Part shown: positions 128-29,820 of the stretch, one piece after another
How the letters are laid out: the number at the start of each line of letters is the position of its first letter
Numbering within the stretch: the first letter of the stretch is position 1
Virus record (IMG/VR): IMGVR_UViG_3300020187_000003
Source of the DNA: a virus
Strand: one strand, 5' to 3'
Length of the DNA stretch: 38,027 nt
Notes under the pieces: model-generated
Seen by the model: only the letters and a program-made list of their open reading frames with translations
Database searches by the model: none
Told to the model about the DNA's origin: nothing
Program-made: the position numbers and the translations under genes

Positions 128-896
128 CGAGGTTGTCATCAGGTCGCAGTCGGCGGGCCTCAACTCTTACAACCGCAAGATCGCAGAGAAACGCCTGACT
201 GCTGTCATCGAGAACACCATTGCCGTGTTCGATGAGCAGATCACCGGCCTCCAACTTGACGGTATCGTCTGCGCGTTGGGCGGCGACATCATCACAGGTG
301 ACATTCACGAAGAGCTGATGAAGACGAACGAATCGTCAGTGCCTGAAACGATTGTCCACTGGGTGCCAGTGCTGGCCTCGGCTATCGGTCGGCTCGCAGA
401 CAGGTTCGGCAAGGTGCATGTGCCATGTGTGAGCGGCAACCATGACCGGACAGGCAAGAAGATCCAGTTCAAGAACCGGGCGCAAGAATCGTTCTCTTGG
501 ATCATCTACCATTGGATCGCTGCTGAACTAGCAGACGATGACCGGGTCACCTTCGACATTGCCGAGGGTGCCGACAAGATGGTGAAGGTTTACAAGACGC
601 GGTTCATGCTCACTCATGGCGATGGGTTCCGTGGCGGTGGCGGTGTGGGCGGCATCTTCCCGGCGATGAACCGGTGGCTGCTGCGCAAGCATCAGGTCAC
701 CCCGTTTGACATCGCAGTGATGGGCCACTGGCACAGCCTGCAGTTCTATCCGACAGCGTTCATCAATGGGAGCCTGAAAGGGTATGACGAGTACGCTATC
801 GGGCATGGTTTCTCGTTCGAGCGGCCGCAGCAGATGCTGTTCGTCATCACTCCTGAGAATGGTGTGACGATCCAGACCGCTGCGTATGCGGATTGA
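3..896 (+). CDS. Calcineurin/Mre11-SbcD-type metallophosphoesterase, C-terminal part (continues from 37774 across the circular junction)
   Basis: In frame with ATG 37774 through the junction. Motifs DLHLD, GGDIITGD, SGNHDR, THGDG and GHWH are present. Stop TGA at 894-896. Confidence 0.85.
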   Translation: MVEAQNAITDQLSAAPAWLAPKRGDSNLHATAWLTLSDLHLDEVVIRSQSAGLNSYNRKIAEKRLTAVIENTIAVFDEQITGLQLDGIVCALGGDIITGDIHEELMKTNESSVPETIVHWVPVLASAIGRLADRFGKVHVPCVSGNHDRTGKKIQFKNRAQESFSWIIYHWIAAELADDDRVTFDIAEGADKMVKVYKTRFMLTHGDGFRGGGGVGGIFPAMNRWLLRKHQVTPFDIAVMGHWHSLQFYPTAFINGSLKGYDEYAIGHGFSFERPQQMLFVITPENGVTIQTAAYAD

Positions 897-1071
897 AGAT
901 GACGAGTGCTGGTGGTGTGAAGGGTACTGGGATGCGTGGGCTACTGACTGCCCAACCCATTCCGACAGCCGTGCGTTATCGGCCGCTGATAAGCGGCGGA
1001 TACTAGGTTTCACCGATGCTTCGGTAGAGTCGGATCGTGGGTTGGGCAGCGTTGTTCGCAGTCCATCGTGA
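886..1071 (+). CDS. Small Cys/Trp-rich hypothetical protein (CWWC...C..H)
   Basis: The ATG overlaps the last codons of the phosphoesterase gene. The ORF conflicts with the convergent ORF 1010-1192, so one of the two may be false. Confidence 0.3.
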   Translation: MRIEDDECWWCEGYWDAWATDCPTHSDSRALSAADKRRILGFTDASVESDRGLGSVVRSPS

Positions 1072-1192
1072 ACGTCGGGTAACTGGACCCATCACCTCTC
1101 ACCTCGATCAGTGTGCCGTGGTGTCCGCAGTGGATGGTGCGGTTCAGGTGGGCTTGCATGATGGGTGACGGGTGACGGGCCGGGGTAGTCAT
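1010..1192 (-). CDS. Hypothetical small protein, last gene of the early operon
   Basis: Its start overlaps the stop of the upstream gene as ATGA (1189-1192), the same coupling used throughout this operon. Confidence 0.45.
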   Translation of the reverse strand: MTTPARHPSPIMQAHLNRTIHCGHHGTLIEVRGDGSSYPTFTMDCEQRCPTHDPTLPKHR

Positions 1193-1437
1193 CGGTTGTA
1201 GTATCCGTTCCCGTGGGCCAGCTTGCGACGACTGGTGGCACCGAACGGTTCGTTACGCATGCACGGTGAACACAACGTCTCGCCGTCAACTACTTGGTCT
1301 GAGGCCAGGTATGTTTCGCATTCGTCGCAGCGCGTCTTGCCTGCCCGTAGTTTCTCGGAGTCCGGCATCAACCCTCCGTCCCTGGCCATCGGCACGCCAG
1401 CAATGTAGGTGGGTACGAATTTGGATTTGGATGTCAT
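1189..1437 (-). CDS. Small zinc-ribbon-like protein (CDEC...CSPC)
   Basis: ATGA overlap with the upstream gene at 1434-1437. Two CxxC pairs are present. Confidence 0.65.
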   Translation of the reverse strand: MTSKSKFVPTYIAGVPMARDGGLMPDSEKLRAGKTRCDECETYLASDQVVDGETLCSPCMRNEPFGATSRRKLAHGNGYYNR

Positions 1438-2009
1438 AGCAGTTGTCCTTCAGGTGGTTGCTCTTCGGTGAGTAGTGAGTTGGATGTTATGAGTCCGGTC
1501 AGCGTGGTGCCGGTAGCCGTGAACACAACGTGCCCTCGCCTGAACCCGAGCTGGATGACAGCGGGCTTGCCTTTATTGTCCTTCACCTTGCCCAGGGTGG
1601 CAGCGTGGGGTGAGTAGAAGCCGAGCTTGTCCAGCCCTACCGGAGGGTAGTCGGCCAGACACTGTGCTCTGAGTAGCTTGTAATTGCGGCTGATAGGCAC
1701 AGCTACTGCCTCGAAGACGCTGTCGCCCACGTACACACAGTGGCGTCCTTCCCTGGCTACCACCTGCACTGCAGCGGCCAGCGAGGCTTCTTTGAGGAAG
1801 CCTGCCCCATCCTCGATGAGTAGAGGCGGGCAACTGTACATCTCCACACCTTCCATCAGGATGGAGGCGAGCTTGATGCCATCGGTGGCAAACAACTCTG
1901 CACTGTCACCGTCCGGCGACGGGTGGATCTGGACATGGGATGCCCAAGTGGGGGCTTTCTTCGTGGTGTCTAGGAACCCGGCCAGGTTCTTGAAGTCGTG
2001 CTTGCTCAT
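1434..2009 (-). CDS. Hypothetical protein with sliding-clamp (DnaN)-like motifs
   Basis: ATGA coupling at 2006-2009. FATDGIKLA resembles the DnaN ATDghRLA motif, and a downstream ADYPPV resembles the clamp YP motif. At 191 aa it is about half the length of a clamp. Confidence 0.6.
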   Translation of the reverse strand: MSKHDFKNLAGFLDTTKKAPTWASHVQIHPSPDGDSAELFATDGIKLASILMEGVEMYSCPPLLIEDGAGFLKEASLAAAVQVVAREGRHCVYVGDSVFEAVAVPISRNYKLLRAQCLADYPPVGLDKLGFYSPHAATLGKVKDNKGKPAVIQLGFRRGHVVFTATGTTLTGLITSNSLLTEEQPPEGQLL

Positions 2010-2401
2010 TGCTGGATGGCCTCCGCATGTTGGGCGATGAGATTGCTCGCAGCGGCTTGCGCTTCAGGTTCCAATCCTTGCGCTACCGCATTAATCAGTT
2101 CAACGAGCGTGGATGTGAACAGTTCAAGCAGGCCAGTAGCCTGGTCGAGTTGGTCTTGGTCGGTGATGGGCATCATTCCTCCTCTTCGCCGCAAGGAGTC
2201 GACCAAAAAGTTCGGCAAGATCGCCGCAGTCGAACCGGGGTTCCTCTCATCGTATTCTGCGGCGTAGTCCAGCATGTACATGACGGTTTCGAAAGGGTCT
2301 TCCCTCATCGCTTGCCTGAGCAAGTCTGTGGCCTCGGCTGTAACCCGTGCAAGCTCGGCCTTGCACTCCGACTTACTGAGATGCTGGTATCTGTTCATCA
2401 T
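2006..2401 (-). CDS. Hypothetical helical acidic protein
   Basis: I place the start at the ATG that forms an ATGA overlap with the upstream stop (2398-2401), not at the longer ORF start 2443. Confidence 0.65.
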   Translation of the reverse strand: MMNRYQHLSKSECKAELARVTAEATDLLRQAMREDPFETVMYMLDYAAEYDERNPGSTAAILPNFLVDSLRRRGGMMPITDQDQLDQATGLLELFTSTLVELINAVAQGLEPEAQAAASNLIAQHAEAIQQ

Positions 2402-2601
2402 TCTTCCTCTTCTGCAAACATTTGTTCTTGGCAGTGGTGGCATAGCGATGAGATCAAAGTCTCCCTGTCCTCAATGCTCACGCCCGGCATCGCTTGTTGG
2501 ATGAGTGCCCCTGCCTGCCACGCTGCGTAGCCTAGCCGGGGGACGGTCACGTCGGTTAGGGTCGAGCACGCAAAGCACTCGACAGCTACGGTCTGGCCCA
2601 T
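2398..2601 (-). CDS. Small Cys-pair protein (CFAC...CHHC) with an acidic tail
   Basis: ORF in the coupled operon, with a 1-nt gap to the upstream gene. It has two Cys pairs and ends in EEEE. Confidence 0.65.
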   Translation of the reverse strand: MGQTVAVECFACSTLTDVTVPRLGYAAWQAGALIQQAMPGVSIEDRETLISSLCHHCQEQMFAEEEE

Positions 2602-2602
2602 C

Positions 2603-2806
2603 TCACTTCACCCCCGTGACAACACCGTCAACGACAGTGGCCTGACCGTACCAACTGTGTGGCTTGGGGTAGTGGGGGCCTTCGATGCCGACTCGGCCGT
2701 CGGTAGGGGCAGGGAACGGGCCGGGTGAGAACACAGTGACTCGCGTCCCTTCCTTGAGCGCCCTCTTCAGCGCTGCCTTCGATGGGTAGTTAGGTGATAC
2801 GTACAT
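2603..2806 (-). CDS. Hypothetical protein (67 aa)
   Basis: ORF on the operon strand, preceded by a 90-nt spacer that contains a hairpin. Confidence 0.65.
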   Translation of the reverse strand: MYVSPNYPSKAALKRALKEGTRVTVFSPGPFPAPTDGRVGIEGPHYPKPHSWYGQATVVDGVVTGVK

Positions 2807-2847
2807 GGTGGTTCCTTATCAGTTAGTGGGACCGAACAGTCCGCAAA

Positions 2848-2875
2848 CCACACCGAAGAGAGAGTGTCGGTGTGG
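2848..2875 (-). terminator. Intra-operon stem-loop (attenuator, terminator or processing site)
   Basis: 9-bp perfect stem CCACACCGA/TCGGTGTGG with a 10-nt loop. Only a TTT follows it on the minus strand. It lies between genes 2897-3103 and 2603-2806. Confidence 0.3.
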
Positions 2876-2896
2876 AGTGCGCAGTGTTCGAACTGC

Positions 2897-3103
2897 TCAG
2901 GTGGTTTCGTAGTTGGCCTCGTCCTCTTCCTCGTCATCATCCAGGACCCTTGTCATGCCCTCGCGACTCAGTTTCTCAGCCGCAACGTAGGATCCGGCGT
3001 CGGCCAGTCCGAAGTGGGTGTCTGTTGTGATTACGCAGCGGTATCTCCATGCGGGGGATGCGGTTGGACCCCAGTCAATAAACAATACCCTCTCGACAGT
3101 CAT
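2897..3103 (-). CDS. Hypothetical protein with an acidic C-terminus (DDDEEEDE)
   Basis: The start is chosen at the ATG (MTVERV) that forms an ATGA overlap with the upstream stop at 3100-3103. Confidence 0.6.
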   Translation of the reverse strand: MTVERVLFIDWGPTASPAWRYRCVITTDTHFGLADAGSYVAAEKLSREGMTRVLDDDEEEDEANYETT

Positions 3104-3387
3104 TCTCCTACCTTCAGGGTGAAGCTGGCGCTGGCCCGCTCCCATCCACCGTGGTCCGATGGTTCTAGGATGGCCTGCAGTGCGGTGATCATGTGTGATA
3201 CGGCGTCGTGCGGCGCACCTGGCAGGAAGAGCGTGACCGACCCAGCGGAGCGTTGACCGCCCCCCTCATCCGTCCTGACCATGACCTCAAGGGTGGTGAT
3301 CTTGCCGTCGTTGTACAGGTCATCGACCTCGATGGCGACTCGCGCCTCCTTGCATTGGGTGGCCTGGATGTTGGTTGATGTACTCAC
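3100..3387 (-). CDS. Hypothetical protein (95 aa)
   Basis: A GTG start forms a GTGA overlap with the upstream stop (3384-3387). Confidence 0.65.
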   Translation of the reverse strand: MSTSTNIQATQCKEARVAIEVDDLYNDGKITTLEVMVRTDEGGGQRSAGSVTLFLPGAPHDAVSHMITALQAILEPSDHGGWERASASFTLKVGE

Positions 3388-3635
3388 TTGCTCTCCTCAT
3401 TGTTGTTGAAACCTGGGAACGGTGGTGGTGGTGGCATAAGGCCAAGCTCCACCTTGAGATCTTGCCGTGCCACGTAGGCTGCAGTGAACTCGTTGTAGTT
3501 GGTCGCAGCGTCGACCCGGGCTGTCGCTGCCAGCATGCGCCGCCGTGCAATCTTGTCCTCGTACTCGAACATCATGTGCTCACCTGTACGCCAATCGTCG
3601 TCCATGCGCTGGCCTGTCCATTCTTCATCATTCAT
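3384..3635 (-). CDS. Hypothetical protein (83 aa, PPPPP tract)
   Basis: ATGA overlap with the upstream gene at 3632-3635. Confidence 0.65.
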   Translation of the reverse strand: MNDEEWTGQRMDDDWRTGEHMMFEYEDKIARRRMLAATARVDAATNYNEFTAAYVARQDLKVELGLMPPPPPFPGFNNNEESK

Positions 3636-3907
3636 TGTCGCTTGCCTTCCTCGCTGGCATGCCAGCTATTCCATTGCATCTCATCAAACTGCTCATCGGT
3701 CGGTCGCCACATCGGGTTGTCTTCCAGAGTGTGGATCACAGCGTCGAACCCCCCGTCGTAGTAACCGGCGTCCAACCATACAGTTGCACACCTTTCGCAC
3801 TCCCTCATGTCCTCCTCACTCATTCCGTCCCCACTGAGCAGGGTTGCCCGATGGTCGCTCGCTTGGATAGCCTCGGCCATTTCGATGTCTACGTCGTTCC
3901 ATATCAT
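3632..3907 (-). CDS. Hypothetical acidic protein (91 aa)
   Basis: AAGGAG Shine-Dalgarno (3915-3920 on the minus strand) lies 7 nt before ATG 3907. Confidence 0.7.
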   Translation of the reverse strand: MIWNDVDIEMAEAIQASDHRATLLSGDGMSEEDMRECERCATVWLDAGYYDGGFDAVIHTLEDNPMWRPTDEQFDEMQWNSWHASEEGKRQ

Positions 3908-3918
3908 TTCATCTCTCC

Positions 3919-3960
3919 TTGGTTGGTTGGTTGGTTGGTTGGTTGGTTGGTGGTTGGTTG
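3919..3960. repeat. (TTGG)8 microsatellite plus a degenerate extension; reads (CCAA)n in the minus-strand mRNA
   Basis: Eight perfect TTGG units at 3919-3950, then TGGTTGGTTG. The tract fills the spacer between stop 3962 and the SD at 3915-3920. Confidence 0.95.
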
Positions 3961-3961
3961 C

Positions 3962-4168
3962 TCATGCTCGGCACTCGGTGGCGCACGGTGTGCCCTTGGT
4001 GAGTAGCCGGGTCACGACCCGGTCGGCAGCTTCGAAGGTTTCTTCGGTCGGCTCCAGAATGCTGTACACCTGGTCGCTGATGTCGACAGCGCATCCGCAC
4101 GTCGTGAATACGTGCAGCTCGTTGTTGTGATGCAGCTTCAGCTCGTAGCTGGCGGTTGTGTTGTTCAT
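3962..4168 (-). CDS. Hypothetical protein (68 aa; an alternative ATG at 4219 would add an NPTQPSQPNQPTQ extension)
   Basis: AAGGAG (4174-4179 on the minus strand) lies 5 nt before ATG 4168. The longer ORF reads through the repeat tract. Confidence 0.6.
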   Translation of the reverse strand: MNNTTASYELKLHHNNELHVFTTCGCAVDISDQVYSILEPTEETFEAADRVVTRLLTKGTPCATECRA

Positions 4169-4177
4169 GGTGTCTCC

Positions 4178-4216
4178 TTGGGTTGGTTGGTTGGGTTGGC
4201 TGGGTTGGGTTGGGTT
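4178..4216. repeat. Imperfect TTGG/TTGGG microsatellite; a CCAA/CCCAA leader on the minus strand
   Basis: TTGGG TTGG TTGG TTGGG TTGG C TGGG TTGGG TTGGG TT, immediately 5' of the SD of gene 3962-4168. Confidence 0.9.
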
Positions 4217-4274
4217 CATCGCGGGCCGACACACCACAGTGCAGCGGCCAACAGTAGGACTATCAGCAGCAAGG

Positions 4275-5129
4275 TCATGCCGTCGCTAGTTCTTTAGCCA
4301 TCGGGGAGCGTCGCATCGTACCCTTAGCCGACAGCAGCACAACCCCGGCGCTGTCCTGTGTTCGGTCATCGTGCAGGTCGCCGTTCGTGGCGTCCATACC
4401 GTGCCACGTCGGCACGTCCAGCTCGCTGGCCTTGGCCCGAATCACGACAGCCACACTGTGTCCAGCGTCGACCATCGACCGGATAGCGTCGACAGTAGTA
4501 TGTTCGGTGGCCGAATATGTCAGGTGGTAGTTCGTTGGTCGGTTGCGTTCACGGATCTGAGCCGGAATCTTGCTGTAATCGTAGAACCGGGCCAGACGAC
4601 CCAACGGATCCCGCAGCTTGAACACCCGTGGAAGTAGTACTTCCCAGCGTCGGTCGCTCAACACGTTGAGCCGATGCAAACACTCACCGAGAGTTGTCGC
4701 AAGGTTGGACCTAACCTCATGCTCTACGATCCGAGCGAACGCCTCCGGGTAGGTGTGAGCGAATACCGTCTTACAGATCCGCCCGAGCTGTGCGCTCTCA
4801 TATCGTCCGTTACCGTTAGCCTGCAAACAGTTAGCGCTACATTCAACAGTCGCATGTGGACACTGGTCGGGCACGGAATACCCCGACTGGATGCCGTGCG
4901 CCCTGCAGTAGTCACGAGCGATAGTGTGCGGTGCTAGCGACAGCCCCCACGTAGGTAGTGTGGACTTATCAAGTTTCGAATTGTCCGTCGGTTGGGTCAA
5001 TATCTTTACGACCCCGGGACGATGAACGAAACCGAACTGTGTACGGAATTCCGCATAGGTTCGGTAGTCGTCTCGGACCTCGTCCGACATGTAGACCCGA
5101 GCGCTGGTTACCTTGGTTGTTCCTGGCAT
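4275..5129 (-). CDS. Cys-cluster protein, possibly GP88-like (function unknown)
   Basis: 284-aa ORF. The segment LSLAP...CPHATVECSANCLQANGNGRY resembles, from memory, the SLP..CP.A..C...C..G.Y signature of phage GP88-family proteins. Not verified. Confidence 0.7.
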   Translation of the reverse strand: MPGTTKVTSARVYMSDEVRDDYRTYAEFRTQFGFVHRPGVVKILTQPTDNSKLDKSTLPTWGLSLAPHTIARDYCRAHGIQSGYSVPDQCPHATVECSANCLQANGNGRYESAQLGRICKTVFAHTYPEAFARIVEHEVRSNLATTLGECLHRLNVLSDRRWEVLLPRVFKLRDPLGRLARFYDYSKIPAQIRERNRPTNYHLTYSATEHTTVDAIRSMVDAGHSVAVVIRAKASELDVPTWHGMDATNGDLHDDRTQDSAGVVLLSAKGTMRRSPMAKELATA

Positions 5130-5206
5130 GGCTTTCTCTCTCTCTTGGTGTAGTTCACCATGAGACCATCGGACATACGCCCGATAGCCCTAGCTGGACT
5201 AACCGA

Positions 5207-5524
5207 CTAGCTATGAAGCGACCACGTAGCAAGGTACGTATCGCCATCCCTATGGTAGGTCATGCCGCGTTCTAGATAAAGGCCACAGTCGGCGTCTATC
5301 CGCTTGCCATGCATCACCATCGCCACAAACATGCCGCCGAAGTCGCTTGTCTTATGCCGCCAGATAGCAGCGATAGACTCGCGAGCTGTCCGAGCTAGGT
5401 CATAATGCTCGTCTAGCATCGCCATTTCCAGCAGGTTCAACGAATACTCTAACGCCTGGTCGTGATCCAGACGTTCCACTGTCTCAACAGACTCGGGCTG
5501 ATACATCGGATTGTGTCCCATCAT
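5207..5524 (-). CDS. Hypothetical protein, first gene of the early operon
   Basis: 105-aa ORF. ATGATG start preceded by a (GA)6 purine tract acting as an SD-like leader. Confidence 0.7.
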   Translation of the reverse strand: MMGHNPMYQPESVETVERLDHDQALEYSLNLLEMAMLDEHYDLARTARESIAAIWRHKTSDFGGMFVAMVMHGKRIDADCGLYLERGMTYHRDGDTYLATWSLHS

Positions 5525-5563
5525 GTGTCTCTCTCTCTCTTAGCGCGGGGGAACATCCCCCGA

Positions 5564-5698
5564 TCTAGTAGAGCCACCACGACCGACTCTCGCCGCTTCT
5601 GCACTCGTCCGCTTCTGCACTGGCCCGGACAGGACCAGCTACCACGTAGGGGTATTTCCTACGACCGGACGAGCTACCACGTTGGTGGCTCTACTAGA
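5564..5698. repeat. Long-range 16-bp inverted repeat enclosing direct repeats and a hairpin
   Basis: TCTAGTAGAGCCACCA (5564-5579) pairs with TGGTGGCTCTACTAGA (5683-5698). Inside are CCGCTTCTGCACT x2 (5593, 5609), AGCTACCACGT x2 (5637, 5672) and the hairpin CGTAGG-N7-CCTACG (5645-5663). Confidence 0.9.
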
Positions 5699-6098
5699 CC
5701 ACTTGCCCTAGAGCCGGACTCACTGAGCGTCGCGGGGTAATCCCATCCGACACCGTCTAGTCCTGCCCCAAGGCAAGTCTTGCTAGCTTGTTCCCTCCAT
5801 GCCTGCCAGGTATTCACACCAGAACCAGGGAACCTATAGACCACTACTTCCCACACTGCGCCCATCGCCATCGGAGTTAGAATCCGCGTTCGTTATGTCG
5901 GTAGCGCTACTAGGTAGCGGTGCAAGTTGTCAAAGAACATCGGACGGCACATGCCCCAAGGCCCGAGGGCCTGAGGTACCGTCTCGCTGCCCCTAACTCG
6001 GCAACGGCTAGAACCTAACACCCCGCCGACCTCCCAACACAACCCGAAGCCACTCTGTAACACAACCGAAACAATGCTGTCACAAACGTAACAAACAG

Positions 6099-6132
6099 CC
6101 CCCACAATCGCCCCTAACAGCCCCCAAGGCCC
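6099..6132 (-). other. Canonical G-quadruplex motif on the minus strand (C-runs on plus)
   Basis: CCCCC-N7-CCCC-N6-CCCCC-N4-CCC on the plus strand, i.e. G3+ N1-7 x4 on the minus strand. Confidence 0.6.
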
Positions 6133-6191
6133 GGCCACACCTACCCCGCCACCCACTAACCTCGCGACGATTCACTACCTAAGCACCAACT

Positions 6192-6281
6192 AACAAATGA
6201 GTGCAACCCCGGCACTAATGCGGATTGCTCGCCAGCAACAAATGGGCGCAATGCCAGCACCAATGCGGATTACCCCAACCC
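6192..6281. repeat. Imperfect tandem duplication, 45-bp period, two units
   Basis: AACAAATG recurs at 6192 and 6237, and AATGCGGATT at 6217 and 6262. A hand alignment gives 32/45 identical overall and 29/35 in the first 35 positions. Confidence 0.85.
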
Positions 6282-6334
6282 TAAACCAACAGTAAAGGGT
6301 GCGCCCTAATCTAATTAATCATATAGTTAGCGCC

Positions 6335-6462
6335 TGCTTCATTTGCGAAGCACTAGAGCCGGCAGTGGGGAATAGGAATAAGAACCATTCCCAGTGTGTG
6401 ACACATGACCATGTGACACATGACCATTGCATCGACGAAGCGCTTGCTGCGTAAATGAAGCA
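6335..6462. repeat. 18-bp inverted repeat (16/18 match) bracketing the operator-like repeats
   Basis: TGCTTCATTTGCGAAGCA (6335-6352) versus the reverse complement of TGCTGCGTAAATGAAGCA (6445-6462), with a 92-bp spacer. Confidence 0.85.
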
Positions 6463-6506
6463 ACCAAACGCCCGATGTGACGCATTTCACATGTGACACA
6501 TGTCAC
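6397..6506. promoter_or_regulatory. Operator-like array: four copies of TGTGAC(A/G)CAT
   Basis: Perfect 15-bp tandem GTGACACATGACCAT x2 (6398-6412, 6413-6427), TGTGACGCAT (6476-6485), and the palindrome GTGACA-CA-TGTCAC (6493-6506), which ends 12 bp upstream of TTGACA. Confidence 0.5.
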
Positions 6507-6517
6507 CCCCTACCCCC

Positions 6518-6545
6518 TTGACAAAAATCCGGCGGCGGGTACCCT
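6518..6545 (+). promoter_or_regulatory. Candidate rightward sigma-70/SigA-type promoter
   Basis: TTGACA (6518-6523), a 16-nt spacer, then TACCCT (6540-6545, TANNNT type). Confidence 0.4.
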
Positions 6546-6819
6546 TAGGGGTGGAGGGCGGGTTAGGCGAGATTGGTGGGGGTGGGTTTTGGTGGGGATG
6601 GTACCTGGTGGTGGGTGGCTGGTTGTGGTGTGAAAAAGGCGGGGTACACTACAGTCGAGCTTATGGGTCCACCATAGGGTGGCTCTGCCACCATGTGTCT
6701 TTGCCCGCATAGGGCTATGTCTGGGACCATGTTTTGTTTTTGCGAGCAGTAAGCGAGCAGTCTTTGAACCCTCTGTATGTCTTTGTTTTATTGGGTTTTG
6801 AGATTTAATAAGTTTTTTC

Positions 6820-6848
6820 TTGACTTTGGCCTAGGGTGCAGCTAGGCT
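6820..6848 (+). promoter_or_regulatory. Candidate rightward promoter for the packaging/structural block
   Basis: TTGACT (6820-6825), a 17-nt spacer, then TAGGCT (6843-6848). It is preceded by an AT-rich, UP-like tract GAGATTTAATAAGTTTTTTC. Confidence 0.45.
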
Positions 6849-7001
6849 TTCAAATACCGGAGTGAGCGGCAGCGAGGGTCGCCTCCTTTAGTTCCGGCTC
6901 CTCGGGCACAGAGTGCAGAGAGGAGCTAGGTGCAGAGGCAGCGGGTGCAGCTATTTGGAGAGACTTGTGTCTCTAGTGTGGCGTGTGTAGGCTGCTCGTC
7001 T

Positions 7002-7166
7002 ATGGATGAGCTTGTGGATATGGTGGAGTTGTTAGAAGGTAAGGCTTTGTGGGGAGAAGGGTTGGAGCCTTCTTTGGTGCGTGAAGTGGCGCGTGTGCTG
7101 CAGGCGGCTATTGACGAGATCACTTTGTTGTGTGAGTTTGCTGCGGAAGTGGACGAGGGTTTCTGA
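7002..7166 (+). CDS. Possible small acidic helical protein (54 aa)
   Basis: ORF in the late leader, starting at MDELVD. No clear SD. It could instead be untranslated leader. Confidence 0.25.
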   Translation: MDELVDMVELLEGKALWGEGLEPSLVREVARVLQAAIDEITLLCEFAAEVDEGF

Positions 7167-7235
7167 TCGCTGGTATGGTGGTGCTCGCACCCGGTCATTC
7201 TTCCTCCTCTCTCAGGGTGGCCGGGTGCTTTAACC

Positions 7236-7706
7236 ATGAAGTTTGGAATGTTGCCTAATGAACCCGACACGACTGCTCGTGAATTGTCTGAGTTCGGTAA
7301 AGAACTGCTTGAGTGGGATACCACTCCTAGAGATTTGCGTGACGAAGGCGAAAAGACTTTGGTCGGCTATTGCAACAGTCGTGGCCATAGTCGCAATCGT
7401 TGTATGCGGACAATGCAAAGAGATGACTACAAGATGGCGCGTCGCCAACTGTCACTCGAAAAAGGTGAAGTCGACTACAAGACCAGAGCAATCCTTGACG
7501 TGGCCTACGAACAGGCACTGAAAGGGAACCCTCAGGCCCGCAAAGACTGGATGGCTTTCTACCAGCCGACAGCCCGCCACCTCACGCCCGCCAAGGTCGA
7601 CGTGCAGGTTAAAGAAGAACCGGTCCCTGTGGAAGCGGTGGAGCCTACGGCCATGAGCGATGAGGAATTAGAAGCTGCTGTAGCGGAATGGGCTAACGAT
7701 GGATAG
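7236..7706 (+). CDS. Putative small terminase subunit / DNA-binding protein (positional call)
   Basis: First sizeable ORF of the late block, upstream of TerL. It has a basic HTH-like centre (GYCNSRGHSRNRCMRTMQRD) and an acidic C-terminus. Confidence 0.5.
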   Translation: MKFGMLPNEPDTTARELSEFGKELLEWDTTPRDLRDEGEKTLVGYCNSRGHSRNRCMRTMQRDDYKMARRQLSLEKGEVDYKTRAILDVAYEQALKGNPQARKDWMAFYQPTARHLTPAKVDVQVKEEPVPVEAVEPTAMSDEELEAAVAEWANDG

Positions 7707-7742
7707 CCCCACGACTGCTCGCATCACGACTTTGAGGTCGGG

Positions 7743-8657
7743 ATGAGTCAGACTAGGCGAGAGATCCTTCTGCAGAACCGCTTGTTGAAGGGCACTAACC
7801 CTGCCAGCCGTTCGCTCGTTTTGGGTGGCGTGGATAACGCTGTGATTGCCGGTGCCCAAAACGCTGTGCTGGGTGGGAAAGATTCAAAAATAACTAATTC
7901 TGATTATTCAACGATTACAGGTGGCAACACAAACACTATTACTGGTTCTTTGGAATCAGGAATTGTTGGGGGAATAAGCTGCTCTATTAATGATGCGGCC
8001 GAATCTACAATAATGGCTTCTAGCGACACAACGATTAATGGTGCTAACTCTAGGGATGTTGTCGCCATCGGTTGTATTGGCAGCACTGTTGGCGCTCCTG
8101 GGGGAGCGTGGGGAGCGCGAAGAAGCCTGGTTCAAGGTTTTTACAATACTTTGGCAGCGACAGCAGATAGCTACGAAATTGTTTTGATGTCTCACACTTC
8201 TAGTGTGGACGATTCACGTTACGCAACAGTTTTGGGCGGGAGAGCTAACACCGTAACTGGAAGTTATTCAACTGTGGTGCTAGGAGGAGAAGACAACACT
8301 GTTACTGACAGCGTGAGAAGCTCCGTGATTTCTTCCCTTCGGAGCGAGCTTACTACCACATACCGCTCGGCAATTATTGGGGGCGACAGCAACTCGATTG
8401 ACAACTGTGTTTCATCAGCAGTTTTGGTGGGAGATAACAATACTAACAACAACGATTTTTCTGTCATGTTGGGCTGTGACACCCGCACATCTGTCGGCCA
8501 GTTTACAACGCACGTAGAAAATTTTAAAGCTTTCGGTGCCACCATTGATTTCGGGGCGCTTCCAACTACCCCCACTCCATACTTGCAACCTGCTTTGACG
8601 GCAGGGCAGTTGTGGGTTTCAGGCACTTCTCCAAACAAATATTTAAGAATGGCATAG
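7743..8657 (+). CDS. Beta-helix-type repeat protein (GG-x-x-N-x-I/V periodic repeats), fibre/adhesin-like
   Basis: GAGG SD before the ATG. Repeats such as VLGGRANTVTGSYSTVVLGGEDNTVT, ITGGNTNTITG and IIGGDSNSID. GC is markedly lower than the neighbouring sequence. Confidence 0.75.
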   Translation: MSQTRREILLQNRLLKGTNPASRSLVLGGVDNAVIAGAQNAVLGGKDSKITNSDYSTITGGNTNTITGSLESGIVGGISCSINDAAESTIMASSDTTINGANSRDVVAIGCIGSTVGAPGGAWGARRSLVQGFYNTLAATADSYEIVLMSHTSSVDDSRYATVLGGRANTVTGSYSTVVLGGEDNTVTDSVRSSVISSLRSELTTTYRSAIIGGDSNSIDNCVSSAVLVGDNNTNNNDFSVMLGCDTRTSVGQFTTHVENFKAFGATIDFGALPTTPTPYLQPALTAGQLWVSGTSPNKYLRMA

Positions 8658-8665
8658 GAGCAGGC

Positions 8666-9031
8666 ATGCATTTAAGATCAGCAAAACTTGTAGACCTTAA
8701 AATGTTTAAGCAGGCGTTTGAGGCTTCTCCAAAAGCAGCGTTTCAGTCTGTAATGACCGATGAATCGGGCAAACCGTCTGGACGTGAAGTGGCTGTGTAC
8801 ACGAATTCTGGTCCTGCAGGGGAAATAGTTGGGATCATGACGTGGAAAGACGCTCTAATAGTTTTGGCAGACGTGAAAAATTATTCGTTTTTAGAAGGTG
8901 AAGCCCTGAATGAAGAAGGTGAGCTGGCGCTCATAGTCGGGGAATCTGATAACAAAAAGACAGATCGGCTGCTGGCAAAGCGTGCAGATTTGCAAGCGAA
9001 GATTAACAAAATAGATGAACGGCTAGCGTGA
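8666..9031 (+). CDS. Hypothetical protein (121 aa) with a coiled-coil C-terminus
   Basis: AGGAG SD lies 5 nt before ATG 8666. This start is preferred over the longer ORF start 8612, which overlaps the previous gene. Confidence 0.65.
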   Translation: MHLRSAKLVDLKMFKQAFEASPKAAFQSVMTDESGKPSGREVAVYTNSGPAGEIVGIMTWKDALIVLADVKNYSFLEGEALNEEGELALIVGESDNKKTDRLLAKRADLQAKINKIDERLA

Positions 9032-9165
9032 TGGACGCTGCGGGCTGGTGGGACATGGTTAAAGGTGAGCAGATGTCGCCGCTAGTAGGCCACGTTTTGA
9101 CAAGTCTGGTGTTGTATGCGGAACAGTTGGAGGTTGCTCAACCTGAAAAAGATGAGGAAGAGTAA
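9031..9165 (+). CDS. Possible 44-aa coupled mini-ORF
   Basis: TGATG overlap with the upstream stop and TAATG overlap with the TerL start. Too short for the ORF track. Translates as MDAAGWWDMVKGEQ...EKDEEE. Confidence 0.35.
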   Translation: MDAAGWWDMVKGEQMSPLVGHVLTSLVLYAEQLEVAQPEKDEEE

Positions 9166-10763
9166 TGGCTTCCAGGGAGGAGGTTGAGCAAGAGGTAGAG
9201 TTCCGCCGTTGCAAAGCAAACGTGTTCTATTTTTTAGAAACGTATTGGCACATTTCGACTCCTGGGGCTTCGCCGTTGTTTGAGTTGCGAGAGCCTCAGC
9301 GGATAGCTTTGGAAACGTGGGAAAGCGGCGAAAACACTATTTCGTTGAAAGCCCGCCAGATTGGCTGGTCGACTCTGTCTGCTGCTTACGCGTTTTGGAT
9401 AGCGTTCTTTCACCCTGACCAAACGATTGTAATGCTTTCTCGTACCGAAAATTTTGCTAAAAAGCTATTGCAGATGAGCAAGTATGGTTATGCCCGCATT
9501 CCTGACTGGATGAAAGAGCGTGGGCCTGCGGTTGAGAAACAGAATCTGCTTGAGCTTAATTTTCAGAACGGTTCTTCTATCGAGTCAATGGCTTCCCGTG
9601 AGAACGCTGCTCGTGGCATTACGGCTTCTTTGATTATTGCTGACGAGTGGGCGTTCTTTAACGATCCTGCTGAGGCTTGGACTGCTATCTATCCCGCGAC
9701 TGAAGTTGGCGGGCAGATTATTGGCATCTCTACGGCTAACGGGTTTGGCAACTGGTTCCACAAGTTTTACAATTCTGCCAAGGCTGGAACCAACAATTTT
9801 AAGGCAATGTTTTTTCCTTGGAATTCCATTCCGTCTCGTGACGAGGCATGGTACTTGCAGCGCACGAAGGACATGGAACCTTGGCAGTTGTCGCAGGAAT
9901 ACCCGGCTACTGACGAAGAAGCATTTATAGCTTCGGGTAACCCGGCATTTGACACTGACATGTTGAAGTCTCGTATAGAGATTTTGCCGCCCGCTTTTGA
10001 AGGGATACTGGCAGAAGGGGACGACGGGGTCGCCACTCTTGTCCGGGTTCCTGAGCCGAACTTGAAAGTGTGGGAGAAACCGCAAGGCGGCATGCTGTAT
10101 GTGGTAGGCGCTGACGTGGCTACTGGTGCAGAGGACGGCGACTACTCTACAGCCACTGTGATTAAAGCGAACACGGGCCAGGTTGTGGCTGTGTTCCGTG
10201 AACGTATTGTGCCTGAAGACTTTTCTGATTATTTGGCTAGGTTGGCGTTGTGGTACAACACGGCTTTGCTCGCTCCTGAACGGAACACGCATGGCCTGGT
10301 GGTGGTGCGGAGGCTCACGTACGATTTGAAGTACCCGAATCTTTACATGCATGTGCGTGACAACATCCGGCAGTCTGTAACACGCAATGTGGGCTGGCAT
10401 ACGAACCAGGCTTCAAAGATGGTTTTGGTTGACGAGCTGGGGGCAGGGTTGCGGCGTGGAAAGCTTATCCTTCATTGTGAGGATACGTTTACGGAGTTGT
10501 TGGCTTTCTCTCGTAAGACTCGTTCGGGCGGGAACACTGTGTATGAGGGGAAGCCTCATGATGATCTTGTTATTTCTTTGGGTATTGCCAATATGGCGTT
10601 GCAGCAGGTTCATGTCCCTGAGATAAAAGAAGAAGAGCCGGATGGGTTAACTATGGCTTTTTTTGAATCATTGGTAGACCGGGCGAAAGGTGCAACAAAA
10701 ACGCCCTATACTGCTGGTTACAGAAAACCGCCGACTACACCGGACTTTGTGATTTATGCTTAA
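9165..10763 (+). CDS. terL: Terminase large subunit
   Basis: Walker-A-like KARQIGWST, Walker B LIIADEWAF, and a coupling motif ISTANG. Nuclease-domain acidic residues are present (VGADVATG, HDDLVISL). 532 aa, immediately upstream of the portal. Confidence 0.93.
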   Translation: MASREEVEQEVEFRRCKANVFYFLETYWHISTPGASPLFELREPQRIALETWESGENTISLKARQIGWSTLSAAYAFWIAFFHPDQTIVMLSRTENFAKKLLQMSKYGYARIPDWMKERGPAVEKQNLLELNFQNGSSIESMASRENAARGITASLIIADEWAFFNDPAEAWTAIYPATEVGGQIIGISTANGFGNWFHKFYNSAKAGTNNFKAMFFPWNSIPSRDEAWYLQRTKDMEPWQLSQEYPATDEEAFIASGNPAFDTDMLKSRIEILPPAFEGILAEGDDGVATLVRVPEPNLKVWEKPQGGMLYVVGADVATGAEDGDYSTATVIKANTGQVVAVFRERIVPEDFSDYLARLALWYNTALLAPERNTHGLVVVRRLTYDLKYPNLYMHVRDNIRQSVTRNVGWHTNQASKMVLVDELGAGLRRGKLILHCEDTFTELLAFSRKTRSGGNTVYEGKPHDDLVISLGIANMALQQVHVPEIKEEEPDGLTMAFFESLVDRAKGATKTPYTAGYRKPPTTPDFVIYA

Positions 10764-11058
10764 CGAATACACACCGCATCATGCTGTATGCAATGATTGC
10801 AATACGGTGTTTGAAGATTTGCACAAGCACGGGGTGTGTTTTGGTTGCAAAATATCTACTTTGACTTTTGACAAAGTTTCTTATATTGAAGACGGAATGG
10901 CTGAAAAAGAATTAGTGGCAGCTAACGCTGCTTCGGGCCGGAAGATTGTTAGGGCTTCTCAGACGGACCCGGATAAGCAAGCAGAAGCAAAGAAGACAGT
11001 AAAGCCAACTCTCTCTGACGAGACTAAACGACGGATTTATCAAACTCATGGACGCTAA
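10756..11058 (+). CDS. Small zinc-ribbon protein (CNDC...CFGC)
   Basis: Overlaps the TerL end and the portal start. Two CxxC pairs and a basic C-terminus. Confidence 0.55.
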   Translation: MLNEYTPHHAVCNDCNTVFEDLHKHGVCFGCKISTLTFDKVSYIEDGMAEKELVAANAASGRKIVRASQTDPDKQAEAKKTVKPTLSDETKRRIYQTHGR

Positions 11059-13150
11059 CGAACTTATACCCGCTCCTTCTGGGCGCGTGCCCGTGAAGAG
11101 GCAGCAGAAACTAGCTGATTACCGGGCTGAAATTGCTGCTTCGCAACATCAGATGGAGGAGAAGAAGTATCACGAGAAGTGGCGGCGGTTCATACACATG
11201 TATGAAGCGAATCTTAATTATTCGACTGACCCGGCAGTAGACTCGATAGATGTTCCTATTGCGTTTGCAAACGTCAACATCCTGCGCTCTGCGTTGACGG
11301 TCAACCATCCTAAGTTTACGGCTTCGCCTCGCAACCTCCAATCTCATCTGGCTGCGACTTTGTGCGAAGAGATCGTAAATTGGGAGTGGTATCACAACGA
11401 CATCCAAGATGAGATCCGCAGGACTACAGACGATTTGTTGATAACTGGCAATGGTTTTATCAAGGTTGGGTATCAGCTTGACACGTATGGGAAGCGTTCG
11501 GATGTGAGCCAGCTTGCTTCGCCTGCCCCTATGGGTGGCATTGATTACGCAGCGTTTGAACAGCCAGGCTACAACAAAGAGTTTGATAAAACTGTTGAAG
11601 GCGCTGCGCAGGTTTTGAATTCTAGGGCAGCTATGGGTTCAGATCTACCCTCTCGTTCTGCGATGGCTAAGCAGTTGCGGGAGCAGGGTTCAATCATTGT
11701 TAAAGATGATTGTGTAGTCGAGCGGGTAAGCGTCTTTGACATGCTCGTTGATTCGACCGCTACGTCTATGAAGAACTTGCAGTGGATTGCGCAGCGCGTG
11801 CCGGTGCGTAGCGATGTGGCCCAGAACAATAAAAACTGGGCACCTCGGATTCGCAAGCAGTTGCGTGCGGGGCAGAAATCTATTGCTGAAGATCCTGAAG
11901 ATGAGGGCTTTAACGCCCGTTACAACTCGCCTAACTCTTCCATAAGCCAAGGCCGTCCTGGTGGGGAAAAGATTGAATGGGTGATTGTGTGGGAGTTTTA
12001 CGACTTGCAAGAAGGAACTATGTGTGTCTTTGATGACAACATGGCAGACGATTTTCTTGTAGAGCCTCAGCCAATGCCGTTCAAGTTTGGCCACCCGTTT
12101 ATCCATATTGGTAATTATTCTGTGCCTGACAAGTTCTGGCACATTGGCGATCTTGAACGCATTGAAACTCTCCAGATGGAGATTAACAAAACGCATTCGG
12201 CTCTGGTAAACGACCGTAAAGGTTTCCAGCGGAAATGGATGGTTCGTGAAGATTACTTGACTGACGCTGGCCCTAACTCGCTATCGGAAGTGTTGCGTTC
12301 TGAAGACGACAACTTGATTGCTTCGATCCCGATTAAGGGGCAAGGGGTCAGGATGGAAGACATTATTTCCAGAGTCCCTTCACCAGCGTTAGATCCGGCT
12401 TTGTACAGTGTGGGGTCCAAGCTGCAGAATCTGATGAATGAGGTGAGTGGCATTTCGGATTTCCAGCGTGGCGCTTCTGGCGGCGGCGGCACTGCAACTG
12501 AAGCAGCGATCATTAATGATGGCACTCTTGCTCGCATGAAAGAGAAGCAGGGCAAGCTTGAGCATCTGATGCGCGATGTAGCCCGCCGTCTTGTGCAACT
12601 TAAAATGCAGTACATGAAATCTGAAAAGATGTTGCGCATTTCTTTGGGTGCTAACCCGCAGTCTGCCGAAAAGCTGCGTAATGCTGGTGTGGATTTGAAG
12701 GGAGCCAACTCGCAGGATCCGACTGAGTTGTTTACGTCTTACACCGCTAAAGATATTCAAGGTGAGTACGACGTTATTGTGGAAGCAGGATCTTCTACGG
12801 CGTTTAATGAATCGCAGCGTCGCCGATCTATTCAGGAGATGCTGGCGACTGTCGGCCCGTTTTTGCAGATGGGCAAGATTGATGTTGACGCATTGTTGAC
12901 TTATGTGTTGCGGTTTGGGTTTGGCATACCGAATGCTTCAGAGTTCATGGTCGGGACGGCCCCTGAGCCTGCGGGTCCGCAGGGCGGAATGGTAGAGCCT
13001 GGAGCGGGGCCTGGTGGGGGTTTGCCGCCTGATTTAATGGCCATGATGCAAGGCCAGGGTGGCCCTGCTGGGGTGCCGTCTGTGGCTGGCGGGGTGTTGC
13101 AGCCTTCTGGTGGGGTGCCTCAGTCTGCGGCTCAACCACCACCTTATTAA
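11048..13150 (+). CDS. Portal protein
   Basis: 700-aa ORF directly after TerL and before the scaffold/capsid genes. The Gly/Pro-rich C-terminal tail is unusual. Confidence 0.8.
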   Translation: MDANELIPAPSGRVPVKRQQKLADYRAEIAASQHQMEEKKYHEKWRRFIHMYEANLNYSTDPAVDSIDVPIAFANVNILRSALTVNHPKFTASPRNLQSHLAATLCEEIVNWEWYHNDIQDEIRRTTDDLLITGNGFIKVGYQLDTYGKRSDVSQLASPAPMGGIDYAAFEQPGYNKEFDKTVEGAAQVLNSRAAMGSDLPSRSAMAKQLREQGSIIVKDDCVVERVSVFDMLVDSTATSMKNLQWIAQRVPVRSDVAQNNKNWAPRIRKQLRAGQKSIAEDPEDEGFNARYNSPNSSISQGRPGGEKIEWVIVWEFYDLQEGTMCVFDDNMADDFLVEPQPMPFKFGHPFIHIGNYSVPDKFWHIGDLERIETLQMEINKTHSALVNDRKGFQRKWMVREDYLTDAGPNSLSEVLRSEDDNLIASIPIKGQGVRMEDIISRVPSPALDPALYSVGSKLQNLMNEVSGISDFQRGASGGGGTATEAAIINDGTLARMKEKQGKLEHLMRDVARRLVQLKMQYMKSEKMLRISLGANPQSAEKLRNAGVDLKGANSQDPTELFTSYTAKDIQGEYDVIVEAGSSTAFNESQRRRSIQEMLATVGPFLQMGKIDVDALLTYVLRFGFGIPNASEFMVGTAPEPAGPQGGMVEPGAGPGGGLPPDLMAMMQGQGGPAGVPSVAGGVLQPSGGVPQSAAQPPPY

Positions 13151-13230
13151 GTCGCGAGTTGTGGTGCATGCTCTTTTAGTGTCATAATAGGGATTGTCCG
13201 TACAATCGGACATTCGAACTATTAGAGGAT

Positions 13231-13995: not shown

Positions 13996-14023
13996 TCCTG
14001 TGCAACATTTTTAGGAGAAAACA

Positions 14024-14977: not shown

Positions 14978-14988
14978 GGGGATAATTC

Positions 14989-15399
14989 ATGGCATTAACT
15001 TTGAAAGCCACTGATGCAAGTGGTAATCCTGGCACGGTTGTCGGCCGGGCTATGGACCGTATTGGGATTGGCGGTCGCCCTATCAAGGGCGTCGGCAAAC
15101 TTCATTACGCTTCGTACCTGATCGACCTCGAAAACACTGCGTATGTGACTGGCGGTGTGCCCATTCCTGTGGGTACGTGCGGGTTCACACGCATCTTTGA
15201 CATGTTGGTGCTCGCAGGTAAAGACCCTTACGGGGCTGCGGATGTGCCACACGTAACTACCGGTTTGACGTTTACTTTGGACAGTACGGACCCTACGGTC
15301 CCACTGCTGGTCATTAAAGACGACGCTGGTGAAGTAGCGGCCGCTTCAACTCAAGCTGCAGGTTCTGCAGTTTGGGTTGTGTTTGGTGGTTTGCGATGA
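14989..15399 (+). CDS. Hypothetical head-associated protein (136 aa)
   Basis: ORF 11 nt after the capsid stop, co-oriented. No motif recognised. Confidence 0.65.
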   Translation: MALTLKATDASGNPGTVVGRAMDRIGIGGRPIKGVGKLHYASYLIDLENTAYVTGGVPIPVGTCGFTRIFDMLVLAGKDPYGAADVPHVTTGLTFTLDSTDPTVPLLVIKDDAGEVAAASTQAAGSAVWVVFGGLR

Positions 15400-15626: not shown

Positions 15627-15635
15627 GGATTATAA

Positions 15636-18343: not shown

Positions 18344-18344
18344 T

Positions 18345-20811: not shown

Positions 20812-20813
20812 TT

Positions 20814-27648: not shown

Positions 27649-27651
27649 TGG

Positions 27652-29818: not shown

Positions 29819-29820
29819 AG

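Follow-up and report, generated by a model that had tools for sequence, protein, structure and literature searches.

A conserved modular non-coding control region, probably with a replication origin, in a marine podovirus-like genome

The virus record IMGVR_UViG_3300020187_000003, a stretch of 38,027 nucleotides (nt) that was analysed whole and is called the window here (all positions refer to it), is a complete, circularly closed assembly of a podovirus-like genome of about 37.9 kilobases (kb). Its sole large gene-free stretch, positions 5525–7001, lies between two divergent operons and is called the hub below; that it is a conserved, modular non-coding control region at which both operons start is well supported. 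The central module of the hub is probably a replication origin, a function that we infer from layout, composition and skew only. The combined model, a divergent transcription start region with an origin in its central zone, is drawn from sequence comparison and is put forward tentatively, as a reading slightly more open to doubt than to acceptance.

Layout and conservation of the hub

The hub is the largest gap in the gene map (1477 nt, 11 times the next gap of 133 nt) and holds about 64% of the non-coding DNA of a genome that is 94% coding by our manual gene map. A preliminary description of this DNA had given the gene-free interval as 1.7 kb; 5525–7001 is indeed non-coding between divergent operons, but the last 230 nt of the longer interval hold a gene, p54 (7002–7166), whose protein is 98% identical in relatives despite many synonymous changes (including CGT to AGG), and the hub therefore ends at 7001. 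Positional counterparts of p54 are found in the distant lineages L020, L028 and L029, and p54 is absent from the L025 lineage. Apart from p54, coding potential in the hub was rejected: in its left half the mismatches to relatives fall 43/39/38 by codon phase, which is no bias, and there are frameshifting indels of 1, 2 and 4 nt. MFFDN-type mini open reading frames (ORFs) were rejected as genes because their length is not kept in relatives. We note two other ORFs. One of 32 amino acids (6197–6295, + strand) reads through the 45-nt D1 repeat in frame (PALMRIA / PAPMRIT); it lacks both a ribosome-binding site and a counterpart in relatives and is probably not a gene. Another of 90 amino acids (6929–7199, minus strand), of low complexity and antisense to p54, follows a perfect AGAGGAGGAAGAATG (a ribosome-binding sequence at 7195–7210) and most likely exists only because the opposite strand has the CU-rich loop. 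The whole window gave no match to Rfam 15 at gathering thresholds, the hub giving just two chance-level matches (E = 2.2 and 4.2), and a tRNA search of it was also empty.

In the close relatives (L001, L002, L003 and L021) the proteins flanking the hub are 96–98% identical to those of the window; the more distant ones are placed by identity of p156, the product of the first large rightward gene (88% in L024, about 60% in L025, L004 and L031, and about 46% in L020/c39, L028 and L029). Eight related marine lineages, whose hubs were aligned or read, have the same module order in drifting sequence. From left to right, the first leftward gene is followed by a structured leader, in which there are TTCTGCAC and GCTACC motifs, and then by a C-rich arm and an GGGTGCGCCC box. 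Next come direct repeats, then a GTACCCC...GGTACC junction, a G-rich arm that terminates in GGCGGGGTAC, and after this arm GC hairpins. The right part has GCGAGCAGT motifs and an AT-rich block, then a promoter with a structured leader behind it, p54, a hairpin whose loop is CU-rich, and lastly p156. In the window the hub and the elements of its central and right parts are the following.

5525–7001, no strand assigned: non-coding hub, right edge corrected
5990–6300, + strand: C/A-rich, G-poor arm; G is 16%, and 12% in the core 6020–6200, the genome minimum
6294–6306, no strand assigned: conserved AAAGGGTGCGCCC box where the C-rich arm ends on its inner side, invariant among L001, L002, L003 and the window
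6335–6462 (6335–6352 / 6445–6462), no strand assigned: inverted repeat I3 around the first iteron pair, DNA fold z −4.0
6397–6506, + strand: iterons TGTGACRC, as 2 × 15 nt at 6397–6426 and as two copies plus an inverted half at 6476–6506
6518–6545, + strand: promoter-like site P_R1 (TTGACA, 16-nt spacer, TACCCT), facing the G-rich arm
6545–6660, + strand: G/T-rich, C-poor arm, in which G-runs are denser than anywhere else in the genome (11 per 150 nt)
6678–6692, + strand: GC hairpin after a conserved CCATAGG, terminator-like in the scan
6742–6761 (6742–6750 and 6753–6761), + strand: tandem GCGAGCAGT motif, kept in the window clade and L025
6759–6821, no strand assigned: AT-rich block (TTGTTTTATTGGGTTTT...AATAAGTTTTTTC), GC 0.20–0.28, tied for the genome minimum
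6820–6848, + strand: promoter P_R2 (TTGACT, 17-nt spacer, TAGGCT) of the rightward operon
6855–7001, + strand: structured 5' leader of the rightward operon, with a conserved GGCAGCGAGGGTCGCCTCCTTTAGTTCCGGCTCC and a hairpin at 6886–6927, fold z −2.1

The preliminary description had looked to related phages for conservation of the repeat architecture, and in them layout and composition are kept but repeat type and sequence turn over by lineage, a combination that indicates selection on physical properties together with exchangeable specificity modules. The hub matches no family described so far. Contig breaks in relatives often fall within it, scattered over more than 1 kb and at no common point, as expected because the hub is strain-variable.

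The promoters that had been proposed at TTGACA (6518) and TTGACT (6820) hold up as the 4th and 5th best sites in the genome by a simple sigma-70 matrix applied to about 379,000 positions; a stricter consensus scan listed neither, because their −10 hexamers are weak. A −35/−10 pair stands at the same aligned position as P_R2 in every lineage that covers the site, the −10 hexamer being TAGGCT or TAGACT in the window clade, TATAAT in L025 and L031 (the latter reading TTGACT, 16 nt, TATAAT) and TAGAAT in L020, L028 and L029, and the matrix scores are 9.95–16.5 in the seven hubs scored. These alignments support P_R2 well as a genuine conserved sigma-70-type promoter. The AT-rich block is the best-conserved block across clades; its counterpart in c39, a relative of 39 kb, has a GC content of 0.26–0.35 over 100–200 nt, by far the minimum of that genome. 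It is a candidate for the upstream element of P_R2, for a duplex-unwinding element, or for both. The rightward leader is kept in L004, L025 and L031, where the hairpin stems have changed and the pairing is maintained. "Ultra-conservation" of 6568–7001 was rejected, since this part is 96–99% identical in relatives and the neighbouring genes are 93–100% identical. The conserved positions of P_R2 and of the AT-rich block upstream of it, and the structured leaders on both flanks, uphold the earlier proposal of a master switch at the start of both operons.

Central module and probable replication origin

The local 9-mer direct-repeat score of the hub is 84, about 12 times the genome median of 7 (maximum elsewhere 34), and its local inverted-repeat score is 24 (maximum elsewhere 21); these values lie above the rest of the genome, the individual systems are present, and the dense independent repeat systems reported earlier are thus borne out. 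Four of the seven TGTGACRC copies in the genome lie within 110 nt of each other, and with the inverted half they form a cluster of the kind looked for in iteron origins, where at least three clustered direct repeats are expected; the AT-rich block, which also serves as the upstream block of P_R2, lies about 250 nt from this cluster. Copy number in the close relatives is 4–6, and other repeats take the same position elsewhere: five copies of GGGTTTGGC in L025, about ten phased CTTTCA-type 10-mers in L029, and only two copies of ATATGGCA in L020. The box AAAGGGTGCGCCC is also found in L021 and L024, with a related GGGGCGCACCC in L025, and the inverted repeat at 6335–6462 is missing from L003. 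On the right side of the module, the hairpin at 6678–6692 is kept with a changed stem in L025 (GGGCGCT/AGCGCCC) and L031 (GGTGCGG/CCGCACC), and in L031 and the L020 clade single (A/G)CGAGCAGT copies stand in place of the tandem GCGAGCAGT.

Both genome-wide extremes of GC skew in 100-nt segments fall in the hub (+0.81 at 6545 and −0.63 at 6099; outside it at most +0.62 and −0.52), and the highest density of G-runs is at 6531, that of C-runs at 6021. The C/A-rich arm, which includes a window-specific 45-nt repeat (6192–6271), would make any leftward transcript G/U-rich; in the G/T-rich arm, C is 9.7% of 6548–6660 and 5.8% of 6560–6645, and the length of this arm ranges from 50 to 110 nt among lineages. 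In all eight related hubs the C-rich arm is to the left of the G-rich arm, as judged by the strongest negative skew lying left of the strongest positive. The arms had been called almost G-free and almost C-free, which is right in that they are mirrored and genome-extreme in skew but overstated, as G is 12–16% and C 6–10%; likewise the AT-rich core described at 6305–6330 is real in the window but is short (26 nt) and is not AT-rich in relatives.

The maximum of G-runs begins at 6531–6545, at the predicted start of the P_R1 transcript, and the AT minimum follows 100–250 nt downstream. Clusters of G on the non-template strand right after a promoter are the classical arrangement that promotes R-loops, and the sequence of parts looked for in an R-loop origin, G-rich RNA over a C-rich template and then an easily melted segment, is found here and in the same order in the eight lineages.

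A cumulative plot of G−C, which the preliminary description had called for, is lowest at 6530 and highest at 35,796. At four-fold degenerate sites between 7 and 35.7 kb, the + strand has more G than C and more T than A, including in the minus-strand replication genes (skew +0.36 to +0.64 in most of the larger ones, at 26.5–32.3 kb), and in the minus-strand genes beside the hub (4275–5524) the four-fold-site skew has the opposite, negative sign. The opposite signs in two sets of minus-strand genes show that the asymmetry follows position and not coding strand. The G/T excess of the + strand over about 29 kb suggests strongly asymmetric (unidirectional or strand-displacement) replication or long single-strand exposure. 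In c39 the sole sizeable descending segment of skew sits directly left of its own hub. As proof of an origin, GC skew is suggestive only.

In the combined model the right zone (6759–7001), by means of its sigma-70-type promoter, AT-rich block and structured leader, would start the rightward operon, and the left zone (5525–5945) would act as a heavily structured leader ahead of the leftward early genes. In the central zone (about 5990–6760) the iterons would be flanked by mirrored tracts whose outward-reading strand is G-rich and C-poor, with the AT-richest DNA then to the right. The duplex would be opened by an iteron-binding factor, by outward transcription through the G-cluster tracts, or by both, and the outward RNA may stay annealed to its template as an R-loop; the DnaB-like helicase and AEP primase of the phage would then load at the opened central zone, and replication would run mainly rightward. 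Mainly rightward replication would leave the + strand G/T-rich at silent sites over about 29 kb whatever the orientation of the genes, and an origin that recruits host functions is what would be expected of a phage that has a helicase and an AEP primase and in which no polymerase or initiator was recognised. ColE1 provides a precedent for an origin opened by transcription (PMC5043065), and in PLE an origin in a repeat-dense non-coding region was mapped by read coverage (PMC7145576).

Several observations weigh against an origin in the hub or against its opening by transcription. The replication module is 20 kb from the iterons, no Rep- or O-like initiator gene flanks the hub, and DnaA boxes in it are at chance level. 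AT-rich DNA ahead of a strong promoter looks the same as an ordinary upstream promoter element and is in itself unremarkable. The −10 element of P_R1 is not kept in L001 or L024, close relatives included, and no good leftward promoter facing the C-rich arm was found in the window, so that the transcripts of both arms are putative. The G-rich arms are not significantly structured (fold z −1.4 to −2.0), and conserved G-quadruplexes were rejected, as G-run density is kept across lineages and canonical motifs are not. The stretch of negative skew left of the hub is only 2–3.5 kb long and overlaps early-gene cassettes that were exchanged recently; its cause could therefore be foreign composition or heavy transcription. 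The replication origin that the preliminary description had expected is still plausible, given the iterons, G-rich tract and AT-richest DNA in that order, the cumulative-skew minimum at 6530 and the position-dependent skew at four-fold sites, but goes without an adjacent initiator or an enrichment of DnaA boxes.

A more specific version would make this a new type of origin, in which the mirrored G-cluster tracts, on the non-template strands of divergent non-coding transcripts, form outward R-loops that open the DNA around the iterons, the TGGTAR-hairpin-TGYAGAA units serve the AEP primase as single-strand initiation signals, and strand displacement proceeds mainly rightward and so leaves the G/T excess on the + strand independently of gene orientation; we consider it unlikely.

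Flanking leaders, neighbouring genes and genome context

The elements on the left side of the hub and the genes at its two edges are the following.

5207–5524, minus strand: p105, first leftward gene (105 amino acids), which forms a variable cassette with 5525–6397
5546–5562, minus strand: small GC hairpin (CGGGGG-AUGUU-CCCCCG), from sequence and predicted folds
5564–5698, minus strand: 135-nt composite hairpin in the leftward leader, with a perfect outer stem of 16 base pairs (bp) (5564–5579 / 5683–5698; I2)
5699–5781, minus strand: second long hairpin of the leftward leader, seen in the minus-strand fold of 5520–5900
5927–5943, minus strand: conserved 17-mer CCGATGTTCTTTGACAA with TTGACA, a candidate leftward −35 element and an exact 17-nt island shared with L001
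7002–7166, + strand: p54 (54 amino acids), conserved at the protein level
7187–7228, + strand: hairpin with a CU-rich loop UUCUUCCUCCUCUCUC (I12), 7 nt before the p156 start codon
7236–7706, + strand: p156, first large rightward gene, conserved, its product weakly like small terminase subunits

The leftward leader (5520–5900, minus strand) folds better than shuffled sequence (z = −4.6; z = −7.0 for the element 5545–5702). The small hairpin at 5546–5562 is about 20 nt upstream of the purine-rich tract preceding the leftward start codon, and the composite hairpin encloses two nested units of the form TGGTAR-[stem]-TGYAGAA (5597–5679). This motif is present in six lineages, on the leftward strand of the hub only and nowhere else in these genomes; a regular expression finds it twice each in the window, L001 (1608–1696), L021 (418–512) and L024 (39–135) and once each in L029 (323–345) and c39. 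The hairpin stem has 3–9 bp; L001, L021 and L024 have the units in tandem, and the arrangement is a nested one in L029, c39 and the window. The stems covary (GCGCC/GGCGC, GCGTC/GACGC, GCACC/GGTGC), which was judged mostly by inspection because automatic alignment of the distant lineages was poor for a consensus fold of this region. The TGGTAR-hairpin-TGYAGAA motif is previously undescribed, and its natural reading is a structured signal in RNA or single-stranded DNA; the units are most likely candidate sites where RNA is processed or stabilised or a protein binds, and may be a single-strand initiation signal. A sigma-54 or ordinary two-hexamer promoter (TGGTAG...TGCAGAA) was rejected as an explanation, as the spacing is 12–21 nt and the spacer is a covarying hairpin.

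The 17-mer CCGATGTTCTTTGACAA, whose TTGACA is at 5929–5934, is nearly the same in L021 and L024, and in L001 its surroundings are otherwise unrelated. The leftward −10 element of the window is weak (matrix score 5.1), and the leftward sites of L029 are strong (11.5 and 10.2). From 5207 to 6397 the window has no match in relatives that are 90–97% identical on both sides and have unrelated DNA instead, so that this interval looks like a cassette-exchange hotspot; p105 has no relative in IMG/VR and no Pfam or PHROG match. We note that L020 has a 72-nt intergenic repeat (2854–2925 and 3225–3296) with the palindrome GGCTCTATAGAGCC ahead of successive leftward early genes, and that its core TAGAGCCACCA resembles the outer stem of the leader hairpin in the window. 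Leftward genes of the window are preceded by purine tracts of the GAGAGAGA or GAGGAAGA type and not by a canonical GGAGG (5525–5545 and, for example, 2398–2413 and 31222–31237), and the same pattern is seen in relatives (L001 1403–1420, L003 8602–8620).

The p156 start codon has no Shine-Dalgarno sequence, and the hairpin just before it, whose stem is kept by compensatory changes in L025, L031, L020 and L027, may be a translational control or enhancer element. The rightward operon runs from p54 to this small-terminase-like protein (the similarity is weak) and then to packaging and structural genes. An AlphaFold model of p156 (pLDDT 67) has as its best fold match a phBC6A51-type homeodomain (BFVD E = 6.5e-4; PDB 2ao9), and several small terminase subunits are also among the matches, with PDB E-values above 1. 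p156 was rejected as the iteron binder: it is 92% identical between L020 and L029, whose repeats differ completely, and thus does not covary with repeat type. Further along this operon a beta-helix-like 304-amino-acid gene product and the next one of 139 amino acids (7743–9031) are only 36% and 29% identical in L001 and L002, and p156 and the large terminase on either side are 83–100% identical there; by this comparison 7743–9031 appears as a second cassette swap, between the small-terminase-like and large terminase genes.

The genes form four blocks (minus strand 528–5524, plus 7002–26520, minus 26496–32311, and plus from 32356 via the junction to 896). Protein families identify a tailed phage with a T4-type large terminase N-domain, a P22/SU10-type portal and an SU10-type major capsid protein, and further with an endolysin, an AEP primase, a DnaB-like helicase, PD-(D/E)XK and metallophosphatase nucleases and RusA; the primase, helicase and other replication genes are at 26.5–32.3 kb. 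The best match of the large terminase subunit is 40% identical. No RNA polymerase or DNA polymerase was recognised among the proteins of the window, and no integrase or repressor family among the roughly 50 proteins scanned, by which a temperate lifestyle with an attP site was rejected. The structural block ends in an orphan gene for a 1374-amino-acid Ala/Gly-rich protein (22396–26520) without polymerase motifs and without a sequence match in Pfam, PHROG or PDB, which is probably an internal or ejection protein; as this virion protein has neither polymerase motifs nor homologues, N4-like hairpin promoters for a virion RNA polymerase were rejected as well.

The window has no DNA-level match among GenBank phages; its relatives come solely from marine and aquatic metagenomes (IMG/VR, JGI, TARA and ENA), and a search of bacterial genomes gave no relatives of the phage and no host. 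The best explanation of the gene content is a lytic marine podovirus that depends on host polymerase. The ends of the window are an exact 127-nt direct repeat (1–127 / 37901–38027) within the exonuclease gene, a size typical of an assembler k-mer. The assembly of c39 closes through an imperfect overlap with an insertion (1–315 versus 38581–39129), which indicates strain variants and not a terminal repeat.

Alternative explanations and known systems

The alternative that survives best is a purely transcriptional hub, in which divergent early and structural promoters are served by long leaders, the iterons are activator or repressor sites, and the origin is elsewhere, for instance within a replication gene, as in lambda. 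This simplest rival supposes that the leaders are G-rich and C-poor in order to avoid Rho loading on untranslated RNA, Rho having a preference for C-rich, G-poor RNA, and the conservation of composition without sequence fits selection on the bulk properties of the RNA. No element of the hub is better supported than P_R2, both sides have structured leaders, and the iterons, at −45 to −140 from P_R1, are in a typical activator position. This explanation leaves unaccounted for, however, the sign change of silent-site skew at the hub independently of gene strand, the AT-richest 60–200 nt (a block that in c39 far exceeds the length of an upstream promoter element) and the retention of leaders of 60–300 nt; moreover the arm promoters are weak or not conserved and no DNA-binding regulator was detected among the adjacent genes. 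We take it seriously and find it somewhat doubtful.

Initiation of packaging at a pac or cos site, or genome ends in the hub, with the repeats bound by a small terminase (perhaps p156), is improbable. In its favour are the weak likeness of p156 to phBC6A51-type and small-terminase folds, the place of the hub at the head of the packaging and structural operon, comparable to that of cosB, which adjoins Nu1 in lambda, and the several contigs of relatives that end inside the hub. In ICP1 the pac site is reported near a rolling-circle origin (PMC7145576). The fold evidence is weak, however (pLDDT 67, PDB E-values above 1), p156 is no repeat-specific binder, given its conservation between L020 and L029 with wholly different repeats, and the contig ends are scattered over more than 1 kb as for strain variation. 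The large terminase is nearest to T4-type terminases, specifically those of cyanophages, at just 28–30% identity, and terminases of the T4 type package by the headful and leave no fixed ends. The preliminary description had also considered the physical ends of a T7-like genome, an idea that finds no support: transcription units point away from the hub on both sides, neither an RNA polymerase nor a T7-type module was found (a T7-type set would comprise a single-subunit RNA polymerase, a family A DNA polymerase and genes running one way), the contig breaks are scattered, and the sole terminal repeat of the window is the 127-nt assembly overlap in the exonuclease gene, outside the hub.

Least probable, to the point that we give it very little weight, is a shield at the centre against recombination or exonuclease (Chi-like G/T-rich arrays that stop a RecBCD-type nuclease) or a Rho-dependent transcription insulator there that would keep any transcript from passing the centre: the G-rich strand does run 5' to 3' outward on both sides, the orientation that an inward-travelling enzyme would read given the polarity of Chi, there is one GGTGGTGG octamer at about 6606–6613 (Chi-like by resemblance), and inward transcripts would be C-rich, G-poor and ideal Rho substrates, but just one such octamer is present, no inward-facing promoter and no operon reading into the hub were found, and the iterons and the AT-rich block are left unexplained.

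The origin model that we prefer can be compared with several described systems. Transcription-opened (R-loop) origins are known in phages at T4 oriF and oriG and at the T7 primary origin, and like these and ColE1 the hub has a candidate host-type promoter, a predicted G-rich transcript on a C-rich template, an AT-rich segment downstream and no adjacent initiator gene. It differs from all of them in having two mirrored G-rich arms with an iteron cluster between, and in that its right-arm promoter is not conserved and its left-arm promoter was not found, the R-loop being only predicted here. In ColE1, RNA II, which is non-coding, opens the duplex and the displaced strand serves helicase loading (PMC5043065); the hub has no sequence similarity to ColE1 and no antisense regulator of the RNA I type.

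With iteron origins (the lambda ori, theta plasmids, and PLE, where RepA_N binds) the hub shares clustered, copy-variable, lineage-specific repeats near AT-rich DNA, and with PLE also a repeat-dense non-coding stretch (PMC7145576). Its units are, however, short (8–15 nt) and irregularly spaced, the AT-rich block lies about 250 nt off beyond the G-rich tract, and there is neither a cognate initiator gene in cis nor an enrichment of DnaA boxes.

The oriV of IncQ plasmids such as RSF1010 has iterons, a GC-rich stretch, an AT-rich stretch and single-strand initiation (ssi) hairpins, and is served by the RepA helicase and RepB' primase. The hub has its iterons, G/C-rich tract and AT-rich tract in that order, with two hairpins, themselves flanked by conserved sequence, that could act as single-strand initiation signals; the phage has a primase of the AEP type and a short helicase whose match is limited to the C-terminal domain of DnaB, and its genome-wide one-strand skew is compatible with strand-displacement synthesis. 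In contrast to oriV, the two hairpin units share one strand and sit about 700 nt away on the opposite side of the iterons. The matches of the helicase are to DnaB and those of the primase to PDB entries of CRISPR-associated primase-polymerases rather than to RepA and RepB', and no RepC-like protein was found in the phage.

In phi29 the A2b/A2c–A3 region is a divergent early/late promoter switch, and the origins are at the terminal-protein-capped ends. The hub resembles this region in that two back-to-back operons leave one non-coding region with repeated protein-binding sites (putative in the hub), but it is 6–7 times longer, has arms of extreme strand composition and an AT-rich minimum, and no p4- or p6-like regulators were found; origins at terminal-protein-capped ends do not apply to this phage.

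To our knowledge, hardly any uncultured marine phage has a known origin or early control region. The hub is an unusually legible control region in this respect, one that keeps its layout and strand composition through the turnover of sequence and repeat type. Should the origin reading prove wrong, a clearly defined promoter and leader region would remain, along with two hairpin motifs that are new and conserved. If it is true, the hub would offer a testable case of transcription- or R-loop-assisted initiation in a phage with only a helicase and an AEP primase, and mirrored G-run peaks around iterons beside an AT minimum would be a signature by which origins could be found in metagenomic phages.

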